Positions 833 to 39,493 of a stretch of 39,656 bases of DNA are shown piece by piece. The number at the start of each line of letters is the position of its first letter. The first letter of the stretch is position 1. The position numbers and the translations under genes were made by a program. The DNA comes from Kayfunavirus AN17P1. Under the pieces are notes generated by a model. It saw only the letters and a list, made by a program, of their open reading frames with translations, was not told the DNA's origin and ran no database searches. The DNA lies in the sequence record OZ035755.1; one strand, 5' to 3'.

Positions 833-1259
833 TTACTACAAAGTGGACCCGGCTAGTCCATCCGGTCTGGTCTCCGTTAGGACTGGAAAGCCTGTGGGGA
901 CATTAAGTCGGATGGGATATTGGATAGTACAGACACGAAGTCTAGGCAGTAAGCGGGCCCATCGTGTGATATGGGAACTAACCAATGGTCCTATACCGCA
1001 TGGTATGCAAATAGACCACATCGACAGGAACCCTAGCAATAATACCTTAAGTAACTTACGGCTCGTTACTGCCGCTGAAAACACTTGGAATACTGGTAGC
1101 CATTATGACTCTAAGACAGGAGTGAAGTGCGTTACCCGTCACCAGAATGGTTATAGGATTCAGGTTAAACGCGGGAATGCCTATATGCGAACAACACGTC
1201 CCACTTTAGAGGAGGCTATCGCTGTCCGGGACCTAATGCTGGAGGGACTATATGTCTAA
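822..1259 (+). CDS. HNH homing endonuclease (HNH plus AP2-like DNA-binding region), 145 aa
   Basis: Motif [41 protein letters not shown] typical of phage HNH endonucleases; GTG start with SD AAGGAGG; overlaps the 3' end of 18.5 and the 5' end of terminase; T7 has no gene here. Confidence 0.8.
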
Positions 1260-3018
1260 GAAAACACCCGCTGAAAGACAGGCAGAAATGGTCCAAAGGA
1301 TGAGGGACGACTTCGTGTTCTTCATCTTCGTTCTCTGGAAAGCACTAAGTCTTCCGGTTCCAACCCGCTGCCAGATAGATATGTGTAAGAAGCTGGCTGC
1401 TGGGGATAATCGCCGCTTCATCCTTCAGGCGTTCCGTGGTATTGGCAAGTCGTTTTTGACCTGTGGCTTTGTGGTCTGGAAGCTATGGAATAACCCAGAC
1501 TTGAAGTTCATGATTGTGTCGGCCTCAAAGGAACGAGCCGATGCGAACTCCATCTTCATCAAGCGAATCATCGACCTCATGCCTCAGCTTCGGGAACTCA
1601 AACCTAAGCAGGGGCAGCGAGATGCGGTTATCAGCTTCGACGTTGGACCAGCCAAGCCAGACCACTCACCTTCGGTTAAGTCCGTTGGTATCACTGGTCA
1701 GTTGACTGGTAGTCGTGCTGACATCCTGATTGCCGATGACGTGGAGGTTCCGAACAACTCAGCGACTCAGGCTGCACGAGACCGTCTATCAGAGCTTGTG
1801 AAAGAGTTCGACGCTATCCTGAAGCCGGGAGGTACGATCATCTATCTGGGTACTCCTCAGAACGAGATGACCCTGTACCGTGAGCTGGAAGGTCGTGGGT
1901 ACACCACTACTATCTGGCCCGCTCGTTATCCACGCGACAGGAAGGACTGGCAGTCTTACGGCGACCGTCTGGCTCCTATGCTTCAGGCAGAGCTGGAAGA
2001 GGACCCTGAGTCCTTCTACTGGCGTCCGACTGATGAAGTACGCTTCGATGATACGGACCTGAAGGAACGTGAGCTGTCCTACGGTAAAGCTGGCTTCGCT
2101 CTACAGTTCATGCTTAACCCGAACCTGAGTGATGCCGAGAAGTACCCTCTTAAGCTCCGTGACCTTATCGTAGCCGACTTGGACCCAGCGTCCAGCCCAA
2201 TGGTCTACCAATGGTTGCCGAACCCTCAGAACAAGCGTGAGGACGTTCCTAACGTTGGACTCATGGGTGACTCGTACCACACGTATCAGACTGTAGGTTC
2301 TGCCTTCAGCTCATACACCCAGAAGATTCTGGTCATTGACCCTAGTGGTCGTGGTAAGGATGAAACTGGATATGCGGTACTGTACCAGCTCAACGGCTAC
2401 ATCTTCGCTATGGAAGTTGGTGGCATGCGTGGTGGTTATGAAGACTCTACGCTGGAAGCCTTGGCTAAGATTGGTCGTAAGTGGAAGGTCAACGAGTACG
2501 TCATTGAGGGTAACTTCGGTGATGGTATGTACCTTGAGTTATTCAAGCCTGTAGCGGCCCGTATCCATCCTTCGTCTGTAACTGAAGTGAAGAGTAAGGG
2601 TCAGAAAGAACTCCGCATCTGTGACGTTCTGGAGCCTATCATGGGGTCTCACCGACTTATCGTTAACGCTGCTGCTATAGTCCAAGACTACCAGTCTGCC
2701 TCTGATAAGGATGGTGTTCGTAACCCTATCTACTCTCTCTTCTATCAGATGACACGTATCTCTCGTGAGCGTGGAGCCTTGGCACACGATGACCGACTTG
2801 ATGCGCTGGCTATCGGTGTACAGTTCTTCGTTGAGTCTATGGCTAAGGATGCTAGCAAAGGCGAACGTGAAGTCACTGAGGAATGGCTGGAGGAACAGAT
2901 GGAGAACCCACGGAAAGGCTTCGAGTCCATCCACACTGAGTTCTGGGACAATGGGGTCCGGGTAACTCACGATACGGACGACGAGCTTGGACTAGGGGCA
3001 TACGTTACGTTACACTAG
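1252..3018 (+). CDS. gene 19: Terminase large subunit (T7 gp19 homolog), 588 aa
   Basis: Length and position match T7 gp19 (586 aa); Walker A-like GIGKS and ATPase/nuclease-type motifs (LIADDVEVP); strong SD GGAGGGACTAT before ATG. Confidence 0.95.
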
Positions 3019-3027
3019 CTGAATGAA

Positions 3028-3076
3028 TAACTATAGGTGAAAGCTGCATGAATAAGCAGTTAGTAACCTATAGTTA
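3028..3076. repeat. Perfect 11-bp inverted repeat TAACTATAGGT / ACCTATAGTTA with 27-nt loop
   Basis: Arms at 3028-3038 and 3066-3076 are exact reverse complements; arms contain the promoter core ACTATAGG; lies directly after the terminase stop. Confidence 0.5.
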
Positions 3077-3112
3077 CTACCAGTCTAACATACTGTTTTA
3101 TAAGGAGTTTGG

Positions 3113-3136
3113 ACTTAACTATCACTATAGGGAAGA
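3113..3136 (+). promoter_or_regulatory. Phage RNAP promoter (phiOR-like, right end)
   Basis: TTAACTATCACTATAGGGAAG matches the 11-member consensus CTAAACTATCACTATAGGGA; +1 G at about 3130. Confidence 0.75.
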
Positions 3137-3315
3137 CCCCCGGTTACTTATAGTATTACTGTAGTGAATATACATATGCAGACTTTATTCAAGACCTTAG
3201 GAGGCAGACTCCGAGTTCTTACCTAAGGCTTGCACCGATGGAAGGAGGGTGATATTAATCATAATCCCTCCAATACAGATAGTCACCGACCATAGATACA
3301 GGAGGTATGTAGCAT

Positions 3316-3474
3316 ATGGCAAAGACCAAAGCTGTACTTAAAGCTCTGGCGACCAATCGAGCTACATACAGGTTTCTTGCTGCTGTTCTACTTGCTGCTG
3401 GCGTTACTGCTGGAAGTCAGTGGGTCGGGTGGGTCGAGACTCTCGTATGTTCTCTGGTCTCTCAGTGTAATTAA
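3316..3474 (+). CDS. Small membrane protein, 52 aa (gene 19.5 position)
   Basis: ATG with SD ACAGGAGG; translation MAKTKAVLKALATNRATYRFLAAVLLAAGVTAGSQWVGWVETLVCSLVSQCN has one hydrophobic helix; below the 60-aa track cutoff so read directly from sequence. Confidence 0.45.
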   Translation: MAKTKAVLKALATNRATYRFLAAVLLAAGVTAGSQWVGWVETLVCSLVSQCN

Positions 3475-3510
3475 CGCAATCATGATAACAATCAACGAAA
3501 GGAGGTAGGG

Positions 3511-3579
3511 ATGGACGAGGAGTCTTATGGGCCGTTCTCTGACGAAGATTATCAGACGGAGTGGGAATACGCGCATTGA
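3511..3579 (+). CDS. Very small acidic ORF, 22 aa (MDEESYGPFSDEDYQTEWEYAH)
   Basis: ATG preceded by SD AAAGGAGG at good spacing; no other support. Confidence 0.25.
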   Translation: MDEESYGPFSDEDYQTEWEYAH

Positions 3580-3583
3580 AGAC

Positions 3584-3624
3584 CTAAGGTCAGTTCATAG
3601 CTGACGCTACTCTACTGACCTTAG
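3584..3624. repeat. Inverted repeat CTAAGGTCAGT / ACTGACCTTAG (11-bp stem, 19-nt loop) near the right genome end
   Basis: Exact reverse-complement arms at 3584-3594 and 3614-3624; no downstream U-tract. Confidence 0.45.
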
Positions 3625-3699
3625 CTACTGTAGTCAAGGACTTTAGGTAACACCTTAATAGAAGCTCACTTAGGGTCATCCTACTTATTGGTCTATCCT

Positions 3700-4100
3700 A
3701 GTGTCGCCTGACCTACGGTCCTTGACCTACAGTAGCTGCCACCTACAGTATTCGATGAGTTTTGGACCAAAAGTTTGAGACCACATCTCACAGTTCAAGA
3801 ACCTCAAGTCTCCCCATAGGCCCTCTTTCAGTCCAGACCAAAGGCCCTACCCCAGTCTATCATAAGGTTAGACCGATGGTCAAGACTTCAGGTCAACGAT
3901 AGGTTGTGGCTATGGCTTAGGGAAGGACGATAGGTAGGGACTATTGGTCTGTCTTTGAGTCTCTATCTGTATCAGACCTTGAGTCACTACCTACAGTCTA
4001 ACTACCTACAGTCTAACTACCTACAGTCTAACTACCTACAGTCATCGACCATCGGTAATGCCGCTACCTACAGTCAGAGACCTACGGTTAATAGACACAA
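3700..4100. repeat. Genome terminus region: putative direct terminal repeat flanked by CCTAC(A/G)GT short repeats
   Basis: TCTCACAGTTCAAGAACC...CCCCATAGG at 3786 resembles the T7 (TCTCACAGTGTACGG) and T3 left-end sequences as I recall them; repeated GACCTACGGT / CACCTACAGT motifs on both sides mirror the CCTAAAG arrays flanking the T7 terminal repeat; no CDS. Repeat length cannot be read from a collapsed assembly. Confidence 0.5.
3986..4044. repeat. Tandem array, about 3.9 copies of 15-bp unit ACTACCTACAGTCTA
   Basis: Exact copies at 3986-4000, 4001-4015, 4016-4030 and a partial copy at 4031-4044. Confidence 0.9.
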
Positions 4101-4340
4101 GGCTATAGACTTAAGGTCTAAGACATGTTAGTCAAAGACTACATCCTCTTACACCATGGGGCCGACGATAGCTTAATCAATATTATTTCAAATTACCTAT
4201 TGACTATAGGTCCAGATTATGGCCTAATAGCTTCCGTCAACACGACACGGCAACAACCGGATAGTGAAGACGCCTGGTCATCCCGGTTAAGTAGACAGCC
4301 TGATAAGTCATACGAACAACAGGCAGATGACAGAAAGTAG

Positions 4341-4378
4341 TTGACAAGCAGTAACGATAAGATGTAAGCTGTACCACA
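4341..4378 (+). promoter_or_regulatory. Host sigma70 early promoter candidate (T7 A2/A3-like)
   Basis: Perfect -35 TTGACA (4341-4346), about 18-nt spacer, -10 TAAGCT, then GTACCACAT as in T7 A3 (TACGAT-GTACCACAT) as I recall it; about 200 nt upstream of the first early gene. Confidence 0.5.
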
Positions 4379-4486
4379 TCAAAACAACGGTGACGACCGA
4401 CACTGAAACGGTCTACCTGAAGTCCTCTGACTGAAGGGAATGCTCTTTAACAATCTGGATAAACTCTTAATGTGCGCCGATAGCGA

Positions 4487-4543
4487 CTAACTACAGGGTC
4501 TTTGAGTCTACATCTGAAGGCCCTGACTGATAGTCACTAACAA
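4487..4543 (+). promoter_or_regulatory. Conserved leader element, copy 1 (TAACTACAGGGTC ... CCTGACTGATAGTCACTAA), possible RNase III / translation-initiation leader
   Basis: Shares a 19-nt exact block CCTGACTGATAGTCACTAA and a TAACTACAGG(G)TC block with 4842-4892; ends about 17 nt before the start codon at 4560; small CAGGG/CCCTG stem. Confidence 0.5.
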
Positions 4544-4559
4544 CCTAAGAGGATTCATT

Positions 4560-4838
4560 ATGAGACTGAACAAAGCTACAGCAGAAGCCTTTCGCAAGGA
4601 GCTTGAATCAAGATTATTGTGTGGAGTGGCGGAAGGAGCCGCTCGATATAAAGAGAATGGTCTAACGTTCAAGCGCTTTATGTGGGATTGCTATCACGGA
4701 GTGGGCCATAAAAAGTTGCAGGAAATAATCACCAGCAACAATGCAGAAGTGCAAGTGATAGGAGGATATATGGCTAACGTGAAGGATTCACACATCGAGA
4801 CCATGCTTAAGAATGCACTTAACGATGTAGCCTACTAG
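4560..4838 (+). CDS. Hypothetical early protein, 92 aa; first gene to enter the cell, upstream of ocr
   Basis: SD AAGAGG before ATG; uninterrupted ORF; sits behind a copy of the same leader element as ocr; no recognisable family. Confidence 0.6.
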   Translation: MRLNKATAEAFRKELESRLLCGVAEGAARYKENGLTFKRFMWDCYHGVGHKKLQEIITSNNAEVQVIGGYMANVKDSHIETMLKNALNDVAY

Positions 4839-4841
4839 TGA

Positions 4842-4892
4842 TTAACTACAGGTCGTTAGACTGATAGCGGCCTGACTGATAGTCACTAAAAC
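4842..4892 (+). promoter_or_regulatory. Conserved leader element, copy 2, upstream of ocr
   Basis: Contains CCTGACTGATAGTCACTAA (4871-4889) and TTAACTACAGGTC; paralogous to 4487-4543. Confidence 0.5.
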
Positions 4893-9429: not shown

Positions 9430-9453
9430 CCTAAACTATCACTATAGGATTAG
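9430..9453 (+). promoter_or_regulatory. Phage RNAP promoter (phi1.1-like)
   Basis: CCTAAACTATCACTATAGGATTA; consensus match. Confidence 0.75.
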
Positions 9454-9492
9454 ACTAAAGGTCATGACTCAAAGTCGTGGCCTTCATGATTA
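9451..9492 (+). promoter_or_regulatory. Conserved stem-loop, putative RNase III site (R1.1-like)
   Basis: AAGGTCATGACT / AGTCGTGGCCTT arms (9458-9469, 9473-9484) with two G-U pairs and a 3-nt loop; same family as 294-346 and 16631-16677. Confidence 0.4.
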
Positions 9493-9525
9493 ACCCTAAA
9501 TAAACACTACTGGAGATTTAACCGT

Positions 9526-12104: not shown

Positions 12105-12259
12105 CTGACGTAGAGAAGAAGTACATCGTGGAGCTTGAGGGTCGCATTCAGTCCTTCGAGGTTCCGGTGTACGCAAAGTCTCTTGAAGAGGCTACCCTGA
12201 AGTCCCAAGAGTATGAGGACGCTGGGTTTGTGGTCGGACGGATTCGCCCTGAGACCTAA
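12101..12259 (+). CDS. gene 2: Gp2, inhibitor of host RNA polymerase, 52 aa
   Basis: [52 protein letters not shown] matches the T7 Gp2 core (HSFEVPIYAETLDEA...AGFEVTRVRP) as I recall it; below the track cutoff. Confidence 0.8.
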
Positions 12260-12278
12260 ACTATCACTGTAGGACAGA
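12255..12278 (+). promoter_or_regulatory. Phage RNAP promoter, variant (TGTAGG instead of TATAGG)
   Basis: CCTAAACTATCACTGTAGGACAG; one mismatch in the TATA element; 40 nt before the SSB gene. Confidence 0.6.
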
Positions 12279-14429: not shown

Positions 14430-14645
14430 ATGATTAAACTTATCGAATTTCTTGGTCGTCTGGTGGTGCGTGGTTATCGTCGTGCTGCGGTTATGGAACG
14501 AAAGGTAGCAGAGAAGACTGCCGATGGTGCGGCTGATGCTGCTGCTCTGGCTGACAAGCTGACCATCGCGTCACTGGAAGCTGGCATGAAGGCGCGTCAG
14601 GCTGACACCAAAGCCGACCAGTTGTCTCAGTTCTTCAAAGCCTAA
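14430..14645 (+). CDS. Hypothetical Ala-rich small protein, 71 aa
   Basis: ORF between lysozyme and primase-helicase; helical low-complexity sequence; weak SD. Confidence 0.45.
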   Translation: MIKLIEFLGRLVVRGYRRAAVMERKVAEKTADGAADAAALADKLTIASLEAGMKARQADTKADQLSQFFKA

Positions 14646-14664
14646 ACTATCACCTTAGGGATGG
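14641..14664 (+). promoter_or_regulatory. Phage RNAP promoter, degenerate variant (CACCTTAGGG)
   Basis: CCTAAACTATCACCTTAGGGATGG; two mismatches in the -5 to -2 region; 50 nt before gene 4. Confidence 0.4.
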
Positions 14665-16466: not shown

Positions 16467-16630
16467 TGTTTAAGAAACTTAAAGCTCGATACCATCGGTT
16501 CATGTACAAATGGTGGAGCGATGAAGCAACCTGCCTGTCGAACATTCTGGGAGACCAGCGGTTCAACTCTGCGGCATGGAAGAAAGCTAACCGGAAGTTC
16601 ATGTATCACTTCTTGCGTACAGACTTCTAG

Positions 16631-16677
16631 GTCTAGACTCAAGGTCATTCACATCGAGTGGCCTTTATGATTAGACT
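16631..16677 (+). promoter_or_regulatory. Conserved stem-loop, putative RNase III site upstream of the DNA polymerase gene
   Basis: GTCTAGACTCAAGGTCATTCACATCGAGTGGCCTTTATGATTAGAC; third member of the family at 294-346 and 9451-9492. Confidence 0.4.
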
Positions 16678-16693
16678 AAACGGAGGATTAACC

Positions 16694-25934: not shown

Positions 25935-25938
25935 TTGA

Positions 25939-25977
25939 AACCCCTTGGGTGCCTTCGGGTGCTTGAGGGGTTTTTTG
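25939..25977 (+). terminator. T-phi-like terminator hairpin
   Basis: AACCCCTTGGGTGCC-TTCG-GGTGCTTGAGGGGTTTTTTG: G-U-containing stem plus U-tract, resembling T7 T-phi (AACCCCTTGGGGCCTCTAAACGGGTCTTGAGGGGTTTTTTG) as I recall it; immediately after the capsid region. Confidence 0.75.
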
Positions 25978-29261: not shown

Positions 29262-29311
29262 AAGGGCCTATAGATTTACCTTAACTATCACTATAGGGAC
29301 TATAGGCCCTT
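29262..29311. repeat. Perfect 12-bp inverted repeat AAGGGCCTATAG / CTATAGGCCCTT enclosing the phi13 promoter core
   Basis: Arms at 29262-29273 and 29300-29311 are exact reverse complements; the 26-nt loop holds TTAACTATCACTATAGGGA. Confidence 0.6.
29279..29302 (+). promoter_or_regulatory. Phage RNAP promoter (phi13-like)
   Basis: CCTTAACTATCACTATAGGGACT; consensus match. Confidence 0.75.
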
Positions 29312-36623: not shown

Positions 36624-39155
36624 ATGTCCACGATTACACAATTCCCTTCAGGAAACACTCAGTACAGGATTGAGTTCGACTACCTAGCCAGAACGTTTGT
36701 TGTTGTTACGCTGGTGAATAGCTCTAACCCTACCCTGAACCGTGTACTGGAAGTTGGTCGAGATTACCGATTCCTTAATCCAACGATGATTGAGATGTTG
36801 GTTGACCAATCAGGTTTCGACATAGTTCGTATTCACCGTCAGACTGGAACTGACTTAGTGGTAGACTTCAGGAATGGCTCAGTGTTGACAGCTAGTGACC
36901 TGACCAATGCAGAGCTTCAGGCTATCCATATTGCAGAAGAAGGTCGAGACCAAACGGTTGACTTAGCGAAGGAATATGCCGATGCTGCTGGTAGCTCTGC
37001 TGGCAACGCTAAGGATAGCGAGGACGAAGCACGCCGAATCGCTGCGAGTATCAGGGAAGCTGGTCTAATTGGCTATATTACCCGTCGCTCCTTCGAGAAA
37101 GGCTACAACGTTACAACATGGAGTGAGGTCCTGCTATGGGAAGAGGATGGTGATTATTACCGCTGGGATGGTACGCTTCCAAAGAACGTTCCTGCTGGTT
37201 CAACTCCTGAAACTTCCGGTGGGATTGGATTAGGTGCGTGGGTTAGTGTTGGTGATGCTGCTTTAAGAAGTCAGATTTCAAACCCGGAAGGGGCAATACT
37301 CTACCCGGAATTGCAGATGGCAAGATGGCGTGATGAGGGTGATGTTCGAGGCTGGGGTGCTAAAGGGGATGGTGTAACAGATAGTACGGAGAATATAGCT
37401 GCTTCACTAAATTCTCAAAAAGCTGTCGTAGCATCAGAAGGTGTATTCTCTAGTTCTGGTATTAATAGTAATTACTGTAACTTAGACGGTAGGGGTAGTG
37501 GCGTGCTAAGTCACCGTTCCAGTACAGGTAACTACTTAGTATTTAACAATCCACGTACAGGTCGCTTAAGTAATATTACGGTAGAAAGTAATAAGGCGAC
37601 TGATACAACTCAGGGACAGCAGGTATCTCTTGCGGGTGGAAGTGATGTTACTGTAAGTGACGTTAACTTCTCAAACGTTAAAGGTACTGGTTTCAGTTTA
37701 ATCGCATACCCTAATGATGCGCCACCTGATGGACTTATGATTAAAGGCATTCGAGGTAGCTATTCCGGCTATGCTACTAATAAGGCAGCCGGATGCGTAC
37801 TTGCTGACTCCTCAGTTAACTCCCTCATAGATAACGTCATTGCTAAGAACTACCCTCAGTTCGGAGCAGTGGAGTTGAAAGGTACAGCCAGTTACAACAT
37901 AGTCAGTAATGTTATAGGGGCAGATTGCCAGCATGTAACTTACAACGGCACTGAAGGGCTAATAGCTCCTTCTAATAACATTATAAAGGGGGTGATTGCT
38001 AATAACCCTAAGTATGCAGCGGTTGTTGCAGGCAAAGGAAATACGAACTTAATCTCAGACGTGCTCGTAGATTACTCAACTTCTGATGCTAGGCAGGCTC
38101 ATGGCATTACCGTAGAAGGGTCTGATAACGTCATAAATAATGTGCTTATGTCAGGATGTGATGGTACTAACTCTTTAGGACAAGGGCAGACTGCTACAAT
38201 TGCACGCTTTATAGGTACAGCTAATAACAACTATGCGTCTGTATTTCCTAGCTACAGTGCTACAGGTGTTATTACTTTCGAATCCGGCTCTACCCGTAAC
38301 TTCGTAGAGGTAAAGCACCCTGGCAGGAGAAACGACCTTCTCAGTTCTGCTAGTACTATTGACGGTGCAGCTACTATTGACGGCACTAGTAATAGTAACG
38401 TAGTGCACGCACCTGCCTTAGGGCAGTACATAGGTAGTATGTCAGGTAGGTTCGAATGGCGGATTAAGGCCATGTCACTCCCTTCAGGCGTTCTTACTTC
38501 TGCTGATAAGTACAGAATGCTTGGGGATGGTGCTGTGTCATTAGCTGTAGGTGGTGGTGCATCTTCTCAAGTTCGACTATTTACTTCTGATGGTATTTAT
38601 CGGACAGTATCCCTCACCAACGGCAACGTGCGTCTTCCTACCAGTAGCACAGGTTATTTGCAGTTAGGTCCTGATGCAATGACCCCAGATAGTACTAATA
38701 CATACGCATTAGGTTCCGCAAGTAGAGCATGGTCTGGCGGTTTTACTCAATCAGCATTCACTGTTGTCTCAGATGCTAGGGATAAAACAGAGCCTCTTAA
38801 TATCTCAGATGCTTTACTGGATGCTTGGTCTGAAGTTGACTTTGTGCAGTTTCAGTACTTGGACCGAATTGAGGAGAAGGGTGCAGACTCAGCTAGATGG
38901 CACTTCGGCATCATCGCTCAGCGAGCTAAGGAGGCCTTCGAACGTCACGGTATAGATGCACATCGCTATGGCTTCCTGTGCTTCGACAGTTGGGATGATG
39001 TATACGAGGAAGATGCCAATGGCTCTCGTAAACTGATTACACCAGCAGGTTCCCGCTACGGTATTCGTTACGAGGAAGTACTGATATTAGAGGCTGCGTT
39101 GATGCGGCGTACTATTAAGCGTATGCAGGAAGCATTAGCTGTTATGTCTAAGTGA
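36624..39155 (+). CDS. gene 17: Tail fiber / tailspike: T7 gp17-like N-terminal tail-attachment domain, beta-helix (pectate-lyase-like) domain, C-terminal intramolecular chaperone (peptidase S74-like) domain; 843 aa
   Basis: First roughly 150 aa collinear with T7 gp17 (FDYLARTFVVVTL, DYRF, VDFRNGSVLTASDL, AIHIAEEGRD); middle has GAKGDGVTD beta-helix hallmark and Gly/Asn/Ser/Thr/Val-rich repeats; C-terminus VVSDARDKTEP...WHFGIIAQ...YGFLCFDSWDD fits the self-cleaving chaperone domain of endosialidase-type tailspikes. Confidence 0.9.
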   Translation: MSTITQFPSGNTQYRIEFDYLARTFVVVTLVNSSNPTLNRVLEVGRDYRFLNPTMIEMLVDQSGFDIVRIHRQTGTDLVVDFRNGSVLTASDLTNAELQAIHIAEEGRDQTVDLAKEYADAAGSSAGNAKDSEDEARRIAASIREAGLIGYITRRSFEKGYNVTTWSEVLLWEEDGDYYRWDGTLPKNVPAGSTPETSGGIGLGAWVSVGDAALRSQISNPEGAILYPELQMARWRDEGDVRGWGAKGDGVTDSTENIAASLNSQKAVVASEGVFSSSGINSNYCNLDGRGSGVLSHRSSTGNYLVFNNPRTGRLSNITVESNKATDTTQGQQVSLAGGSDVTVSDVNFSNVKGTGFSLIAYPNDAPPDGLMIKGIRGSYSGYATNKAAGCVLADSSVNSLIDNVIAKNYPQFGAVELKGTASYNIVSNVIGADCQHVTYNGTEGLIAPSNNIIKGVIANNPKYAAVVAGKGNTNLISDVLVDYSTSDARQAHGITVEGSDNVINNVLMSGCDGTNSLGQGQTATIARFIGTANNNYASVFPSYSATGVITFESGSTRNFVEVKHPGRRNDLLSSASTIDGAATIDGTSNSNVVHAPALGQYIGSMSGRFEWRIKAMSLPSGVLTSADKYRMLGDGAVSLAVGGGASSQVRLFTSDGIYRTVSLTNGNVRLPTSSTGYLQLGPDAMTPDSTNTYALGSASRAWSGGFTQSAFTVVSDARDKTEPLNISDALLDAWSEVDFVQFQYLDRIEEKGADSARWHFGIIAQRAKEAFERHGIDAHRYGFLCFDSWDDVYEEDANGSRKLITPAGSRYGIRYEEVLILEAALMRRTIKRMQEALAVMSK

Positions 39156-39493
39156 GTAATACTGGTACGGTATTTTCGCACAATGAAATCGTTGAACACA
39201 CTGACGAGGAGGGTAATGTCACTACTACGGAAGAACCTGTATACACCGAGGTGTTTATTCACGAAGAGGGTGGGGAGTAGGGTGTTCGGCCTGACGGAAT
39301 TTTCTTTGCTGAAGCCGCTTATCAGAGAAGAAAACTGGAAAGAATCGAAGCCAGACTTTCTGCTCTTGAACAGAAGTAATAAACAAAACCATTTTGCCAT
39401 TAAGTTGGTGTGGGGGGGTAGAGACTAACTACACGCTAACCAACGTATGTAACAACTTTGGGTCACGGACGACCCGCTTTAAACTGGAGGTTT

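Follow-up and report, generated by a model that had tools for sequence, protein, structure and literature searches.

A three-helix hairpin between the terminase gene and phiOR of K1F-like phages, most likely a processing or stabilising element of the late message

The spacer between the large terminase gene (gene 19) and the phiOR-type promoter of the phage genome analysed here contains a three-helix hairpin that is conserved in relatives by covariation and lacks promoter and terminator features of its own. We propose, with a probability of roughly 0.55, that it is an RNA stem-loop that marks and protects the gene 17-19 message at its 3' end; most likely, it is a previously unannotated processing or stabilising hairpin of the kind known from phages T7 and T3. 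Under this hypothesis, the hairpin would act as RNA and stabilise the message, possibly with the involvement of RNase III, a component to which we assign about half of the weight of the hypothesis. No description of the hairpin was found in those parts of the literature that were searched.

The window, i.e., the whole stretch of 39,656 nucleotides analysed, belongs among the K1F-like phages: a megablast search with positions 2400-4400 matched 402 phage records, the best of which are Kayfunavirus genomes (K1F-like, Studiervirinae; 92-97% identity), in which the stretches homologous to gene 19 are annotated as the terminase large subunit. All genes and promoters are on the + strand, and transcription is rightward throughout. 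The features that frame the hairpin are as follows.

1252-3018, + strand: large terminase gene (gene 19), 588 aa, from the list of open reading frames
3113-3135, + strand: phiOR-type phage promoter ACTTAACTATCACTATAGGGAAG, 34.7 bits on the promoter matrix, outside the hairpin
3316-3474, + strand: gene 19.5 homologue, 52 aa (BLASTP against T7 gp19.5: 33% identity over 33 aa, E = 2e-5)
3786-3963: one copy of the predicted terminal repeat, recognised by being identical to both ends of the K1F record

The same order of gene 19, a spacer of ~95 nt, a phage promoter, gene 19.5 and the terminal repeat is found in T7 (where gene 19 ends at 39130 and phiOR lies at 39229 of the reference), T3 and phiYeO3-12, which identifies the promoter at 3113-3135 as the equivalent of phiOR; the presence of the gene 19.5 homologue confirms the synteny with T7. 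The K1F record starts with TCTCACAGTT, ends with GAGTCTC and has a terminal repeat of 177 nt. Given that the window holds a single copy of this repeat, in an internal position, it represents a circular permutation of the genome, and the hairpin belongs to the right-end region. Two further elements were observed nearby. Directly after the terminal repeat, the concatemer-junction-like signal ATCTGT (3965-3970) is followed by four tandem CTACCTACAGTCTAA units (3988-4040), and an imperfect hairpin AGACCTTAGG...CCTAAGGCTT lies at 3185-3240, ~60 nt downstream of the phiOR start and ahead of gene 19.5.

The initial annotation had pointed to an 11-bp inverted repeat after the terminase gene, located about 40 bp upstream of a genuine promoter (3113) and able to form a stable hairpin as RNA, and these claims hold. 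The arms TAACTATAGGT (3028-3038) and ACCTATAGTTA (3066-3076) are 100% complementary over 11 bp, with 27 nt between them, start 10 nt past the stop codon and end 37 nt ahead of the full promoter. Perfect inverted repeats of at least 11 bp with a loop of at most 40 nt are present at 3 loci in the window vs 0.39 hits per dinucleotide shuffle, and the bare repeat is only mildly unusual given that a quarter of the shuffles hold at least one. The repeat is the middle helix of a larger, three-helix hairpin (3016-3087), and this extended fold has an energy of -24.7 kcal/mol (z = -4.0), with none of 200 shuffles being as stable. By the GC-corrected folding energy of 70-nt segments, the hairpin ranks third genome-wide; the Tphi-like terminator and the R18.5-type hairpin (283-353) fold more stably, and the R13-like and R0.5-like hairpins are on a par with it. 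Its elements are listed below, with the share of paired cells in the alignment of relatives (A1, see below) given for the helices.

3016-3021, + strand: outer (lower) helix, 5' strand UAGCUG, pairs with 3081-3087 (MFE fold; 89% of cells paired in A1)
3022-3027, + strand: internal loop, 5' side AAUGAA, belonging to a conserved AUGAAUA motif with a second copy in the apical loop
3028-3038, + strand: 5' arm of the repeat, UAACUAUAGGU, central 11-bp helix (92% of cells paired)
3042-3047, + strand: upper helix, 5' strand AGCUGC (fold; 90% of cells paired)
3048-3055, + strand: apical loop AUGAAUAA, 8 nt, largely conserved in A1 even where the arms are replaced
3056-3061, + strand: upper helix, 3' strand GCAGUU (fold and alignment)
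3066-3076, + strand: 3' arm of the repeat, ACCUAUAGUUA (fold and alignment)
3077-3080, + strand: internal loop, 3' side CUAC (fold)
3081-3087, + strand: outer helix, 3' strand CAGUCUA, with one bulged U (fold and alignment)

The terminase stop codon TAG (3016-3018) sits within the outer helix, which in the relatives L016 and L021 is formed by GACC/GGUC instead. Columns T11, G12, A14, T15 and A16 of A1, which belong to the AUGAAUA motif of the 5' internal loop, are invariant. This motif is part of a direct repeat, AGCTGAATGAATAA (3017-3030) and AGCTGCATGAATAA (3042-3055), so that the 5' internal loop and the apical loop each hold one AUGAAUA; the motif stays conserved in sequences with replaced arms.

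A homologous spacer was found in 190 phage records. From IMG/VR loci, metagenome contigs and GenBank phages, we obtained 34 distinct spacer sequences, of which 29 were alignable (A1); a metagenome scan with the conserved pattern downstream of phiOR returned only 8 loci and added little diversity. When the three-helix structure is imposed on A1 (n = 29), 90.9% of the cells are standard pairs, and changes on both sides are seen in 8 of the 23 pairs overall, including 6 of the 11 pairs of the repeat. Neither the observed pairing nor the covariation was matched in any of 500 shuffles, and when the partners are slid against each other, pairing drops to 12-43%. The upper helix displays alternation between G.U and A-U and between U-A and U.G, as well as a C-G to A-U compensation in L094, L095 and L097. 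In the repeat, the octamer ACTATAGG is kept in about half of the distinct sequences, with the variable pair being A-U in 14, G-U in 7 and G-C in 5 of them. The variant arms are the following.

Many sequences: G.U wobble arms ACTATGGG / CCTATAGT
Several sequences: U.G wobble arm ATTATAGG
Several sequences: U.G wobble arm CCTATGGT
L016, L021: compensated arms ACTATGGG / CCCATAGT
L018-L020, L027, Dev2, IME278, HHH: replaced arms ACCTACGCA / TGCGTTAGGT
L017, L037: replaced arms GTACCG / CGGTAC
L048: replaced arms GGTTAGTC...GACTAACC

Altogether, at least four unrelated arm sets, the ACTATRGG type and the three replaced ones, surround a conserved apical loop; the near-constant parts of A1 are this loop (AUGAAUAM) and AAUGAAUA just 5' of the repeat. 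Conservation in relatives had been named earlier as a test of the repeat, and the outcome is divided: the sequence of the arms is not conserved but the helix is, through compensation, wobble pairing and wholesale replacement of the arms. With respect to the strand on which the helices are maintained, 5 of the 6 transition types produce G.U or bring back A-U when read on the + strand, the remaining one pointing to the - strand; by folding energy, the two strands cannot be told apart (17 of 29 sequences favour the + strand, p = 0.77).

A covariance model of the hairpin, built from A1 and run over the window and 21 loci, detected a single copy and no second one in the genome; apart from that, the model matched the replaced hairpins of L011, L048 and L102 without significance, and T7 and T3 not at all. 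The T7 and T3 spacers contain only two small hairpins, and their alignment with the present spacer is not strong enough for individual helices to be called homologous. Among distant T7-like contigs, some lineages carry a strong, unrelated hairpin in the spacer (e.g., GUGACUGGA...UCCGGUCAC, z about -3.5), and in many other lineages no hairpin was found between gene 19 and phiOR. The idea that all T7-like phages have a hairpin at this place is accordingly rejected, only some of the distant lineages having one: the hairpin is a feature of lineages. In the spacers of other distant T7-like contigs (L028, L032-L036, L039, L045, L047, L050 and L052-L054), a conserved direct repeat CACGTT...CACGTT (GCACGTTAGCGACACGTTCGACGAAG) is present in its stead.

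For mobile genes, this spacer is a natural hotspot of insertion. Some relatives carry one of two unrelated HNH endonuclease genes at precisely this place, after the terminase stop codon and before phiOR, where it replaces the original hairpin.

L011 (3412-3828) and L102: HNH gene of the 138-aa type
L012 (3414-3956) and L015 (3410-3952): HNH gene of the 180-aa type

The spacers with the 138-aa type contain a new 9-bp hairpin at the same spot, which re-uses the old 3' flank and was either brought in or evolved there. In those with the 180-aa type, no hairpin was detected. Given that L012 and L015 are natural relatives, any function of the hairpin is dispensable, and an element that is favoured but dispensable fits a role in mRNA stability better than that of an essential cis-acting site for replication or packaging.

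The hairpin follows the general plan of T7-type RNase III sites, with a 6-bp outer helix, an internal loop of 6/4 nt, an 11-bp helix and an apical domain, and shares their setting as well, being intercistronic, on the transcribed strand, between gene 19 and phiOR and 37 nt before the promoter. A motif search of the genome did not find the canonical motif ACUCAAGGUC...GGCCUUUAUGA in it, although the same search recovered five canonical T7-type RNase III hairpins with this motif in the window, at 294-345, 4480-4545, 4840-4890, 9449-9495 and 16630-16680. This motif does not define all RNase III sites, given that R13 and R3.8 of T3 lack it, too. In the T3 and phiYeO3-12 records, no RNase III site is annotated at the position of the hairpin.

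The closest parallels are sites built from promoters. In T7, R13 consists of the core of the phi13 promoter paired with an upstream inverted copy, and the annotated RNase III sites R13, R3.8 and R6.5 of T3 likewise combine a promoter core with its inverted copy. The window contains a hairpin of this type at 29262-29273/29300-29311, a perfect 12-bp stem with arms AAGGGCCUAUAG / CUAUAGGCCCUU (AAGGGCCTATAG / CTATAGGCCCTT as DNA) and an apical domain of 26 nt, which encloses a phi13-type promoter between genes 12 and 13 and is likely the equivalent of the T7 and T3 R13 site; it also explains the tandem copy of ACTATAGG at 29299. Palindromes of the promoter core are, on the strength of these cases, a known design of processing hairpins in the T7 group. 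The terminase hairpin resembles the promoter-built sites in that it is an intercistronic + strand hairpin next to a phage promoter, has arms with the promoter core and its inverted copy, and is confined to read-through transcripts. With R6.5 of T3 and the R13-like hairpin of the window, it further shares a main helix of 10-12 bp above a short lower helix and internal loop, and a large apical domain; the R13-like hairpin is almost identical to it in geometry and has the CCUAUAG/CUAUAGG core in common with it. Unlike in these sites, the arms are not part of a working promoter, which lies 37 nt downstream. The canonical sites R0.3, R0.5, R1.1, R4.7 and R18.5 are comparable in size (~50-70 nt), in the succession of lower helix, internal loop and upper helix, and in their intergenic location; they differ in the motif ACUCAAGGUC...GGCCUUUAUGA, which is common to the canonical sites of T3 and the five sites of the window and absent from the terminase hairpin. 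The T3 and T7 sites are cut by RNase III in the 3' side of the internal loop, and by analogy, a cut of the T7 type would fall in CUAC (3077-3080).

In the proposed mechanism, the hairpin, located in the untranslated spacer between the terminase gene and phiOR, would form only in late transcripts that read through from upstream promoters; those starting at phiOR would lack it. Host RNase III might cut the internal loop (~3077-3080), leaving the hairpin on the upstream RNA as at R13 and R6.5, or else the hairpin itself might stop 3'-to-5' exonucleases that set out from the long untranslated stretch of RNA downstream. The initial annotation had already suggested that the hairpin, at the end of the late transcript, might be a 3' stabiliser or a site of processing, and both the conservation of the helix and the strength of the fold fit this suggestion, from which we infer the role. 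The hairpin would also be comparable to REP-type barriers and other 3' stem-loop stabilisers: it is a stable stem-loop that directly follows the final gene of a polycistronic message, has no U-run and would be expected to block PNPase and RNase II, but differs from them in being phage-specific and single-copy. Hairpins left by RNase III at T7 sites have been described as stabilisers of mRNA 3' ends (Panayotatos and Truong, 1985, as cited in PMC6938266).

The fold, the covariation, the predominance of substitutions compatible with the + strand, the new hairpin of the 138-aa HNH type, the analogy with R13 and R6.5 and the hairpins of other lineages are all consistent with protection of the message. 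Against it stand the lack of the canonical motif and of an annotated counterpart in T3 and phiYeO3-12, the even strand energies (17/29) and the hairpin-less spacers of L012, L015 and many distant lineages; in addition, compensation within a palindrome may come about by template switching, with no selection involved.

This last point leads to an alternative that we consider unlikely, namely, that the hairpin is a functionless relic, a decayed inverted promoter duplication or a template-switch product that is kept or re-perfected by mutation rather than by selection. In favour of such a relic, the arm TAACTATAGG equals the promoter sequence TAACTAT[CACTAT]AGG minus one 6-bp unit; the T7 spacer also contains a promoter-core-like CACTATAGA, and the loss of the hairpin from L012 and L015 without apparent harm, along with its absence from many distant lineages, speaks for it as well. 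A relic, however, does not account for the pairing that arms of unrelated sequence retain in several lineages on either side of a conserved loop, for the persistence of imperfect variants (with a bulge or G.U), which template switching is not expected to leave, or for the new hairpin that accompanies the 138-aa HNH gene, and the stability of the fold ranks with that of the known regulatory hairpins of the genome.

It is also rather improbable that the hairpin is a signal for the phage RNA polymerase, which would pause or partly terminate read-through transcription here, perhaps together with CUGUUUU (3093-3099), and so shield phiOR and the end region of the genome from an excess of such transcription. 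The location of the hairpin right before phiOR would suit such a signal. The class II signal of T7 is ATCTGTT; no exact match to it was found at the hairpin, only ACTGTTTT at 3092-3099, which loosely resembles it and follows the hairpin in the window-type clade. This stretch is not conserved among the hairpin-bearing relatives, the CTGTTTT being changed in the L016, L017 and L018 types while the hairpin is kept, and ATCTGT in its exact form is found at other sites, among them 3965, where the terminal repeat ends. A scan of 2500-4600 for intrinsic terminators returned no terminator-like site, and a scan of the same interval with Rfam covariance models gave no match up to E = 10. The 11-bp stem is AU-rich, with 3 of 11 pairs being G-C, and is followed by the tail CUACCAGUC, with no U-run abutting the stem. 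The genome does possess a genuine Tphi-type late terminator at 25937-25976, its strongest local fold, a GC-rich 17-bp hairpin followed by a U-run of 6-7; with this class I terminator, the terminase hairpin has in common that it is a strong hairpin after a late gene, and differs in being AU-rich and without a U-run.

We likewise give little credence to a function at the level of DNA, in which a cruciform or a hairpin in single-stranded DNA would take part in replication initiation linked to phiOR or in the processing and packaging of concatemers. The palindrome folds equally on both strands and is close to phiOR, which in T7 is a secondary origin that has been implicated in packaging (also stated in PMC4099482). 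Nevertheless, it lies ~710 bp to the left of the terminal repeat (3786-3963), variants with G.T mismatches are common in nature, a 27-nt spacer should disfavour cruciform extrusion, and the element is naturally deleted in L012 and L015. A palindrome of T7, the 'hairpin end', was reportedly proposed by Chung, Nardone and Hinkle in 1990 to function in concatemer processing; its place is beyond phiOR and gene 19.5, a short way before the terminal repeat. Both are palindromes in the right-end region of a T7-like genome, but the terminase repeat differs in its position upstream of phiOR, in its distance from the terminal repeat and in its deletion from some relatives. A different perfect palindrome is much nearer to the terminal repeat: CTAAGGTCAGT / ACTGACCTTAG at 3584-3594/3614-3624 (11 bp, 19-nt loop), downstream of gene 19.5, ~160-200 bp left of 3786 and identical in K1F. 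By its position, we take this second palindrome to be a candidate for the concatemer-processing hairpin of the T7 type.

A more remote alternative focuses on the AUGAAUA motifs of the 5' internal loop and the apical loop, which persist while the arms are exchanged time and again and might be recognised in a sequence-specific manner on late RNA that has read through. By binding there, a factor of the phage or the host might couple the end of late transcription to events driven by phiOR, such as priming or concatemer processing, and the promoter-like arms would be a trace of the birth of the processing hairpins of the T7 group from promoter duplications.

The promoter likeness of the arms had led to a further claim, that they present two opposed half sites that bind the phage RNA polymerase non-productively on duplex DNA. 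The core octamer ACTATAGG corresponds to positions -6 to +2 of the promoter and is present in the window in 13 copies vs 1.09 expected, i.e., in nine full promoters, the two arms of the repeat, an additional copy behind the phi13-type promoter and a weak site resembling phiOL. The arms of the window do, then, reuse the promoter core, as initially noted, but this likeness is not conserved in relatives, and its appearance in opposite orientations is automatic because CTATAG is itself palindromic. ATCACTATAGG is common to all nine promoters, which reach 33-38 bits on the matrix derived from them; the arms reach -3.1 and -14.6 bits and lack the recognition region (-17 to -7) of the 23-bp consensus. 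In real promoters, the core CACTATAGG is invariant, whereas the arms vary freely (ACTATGGG, ATTATAGG, ACTATTGG); phages with the same promoter may have arms without any promoter likeness, such as ACCTACGCA/TGCGTTAGGT, and in L017, L037 and L048, which have a different phiOR promoter, ACCCTCACTATAGG, the arms do not track it. Taken together, the low matrix scores, the missing recognition region and the independence of the arms from the promoter fail to support binding of the polymerase, and we regard such a decoy as very improbable: a match to the promoter core within a palindrome is not evidence of polymerase binding. Judging from the sequences compared, the likeness is probably incidental or ancestral, possibly that of a decayed promoter copy, and would not be required for function.

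Finally, a small protein gene starting at the ATG of the apical loop and running through phiOR (3049-3165; 38787-38891 in K1F, NC_007456) is hardly credible and was rejected: despite its annotation as a CDS for a hypothetical protein in K1F (gp41) and several MZ, OQ and PP records, it has no Shine-Dalgarno sequence ahead, overlaps the promoter, and does not stay open in other Kayfunavirus lineages, where the frame is interrupted after 4 codons (L018 type) or 10 codons (L016 type). The annotation across the loop and phiOR is probably a mis-annotation, which the proposed hairpin, if correct, would explain.

If the interpretation of the hairpin as a message-protecting stem-loop is correct, it adds an unannotated element of RNA processing or stability to the K1F-like phages, which are used in therapy against K1 E. 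coli and in engineering. In practical terms, 3016-3087 should be kept intact when cargo is inserted after the terminase gene, with consequences that are expected to be small.

Two further near-consensus promoters, missed by the search with ACTATAGG, lie at 12255-12277 and 14641-14663 (CCTAAACTATCACTGTAGGACAG, 29 bits, and CCTAAACTATCACCTTAGGGATG, 25 bits), and a degenerate phiOL-like site, TTACCTATTGACTATAGGT, is present at 4192-4214, ~415 nt from the predicted left end.
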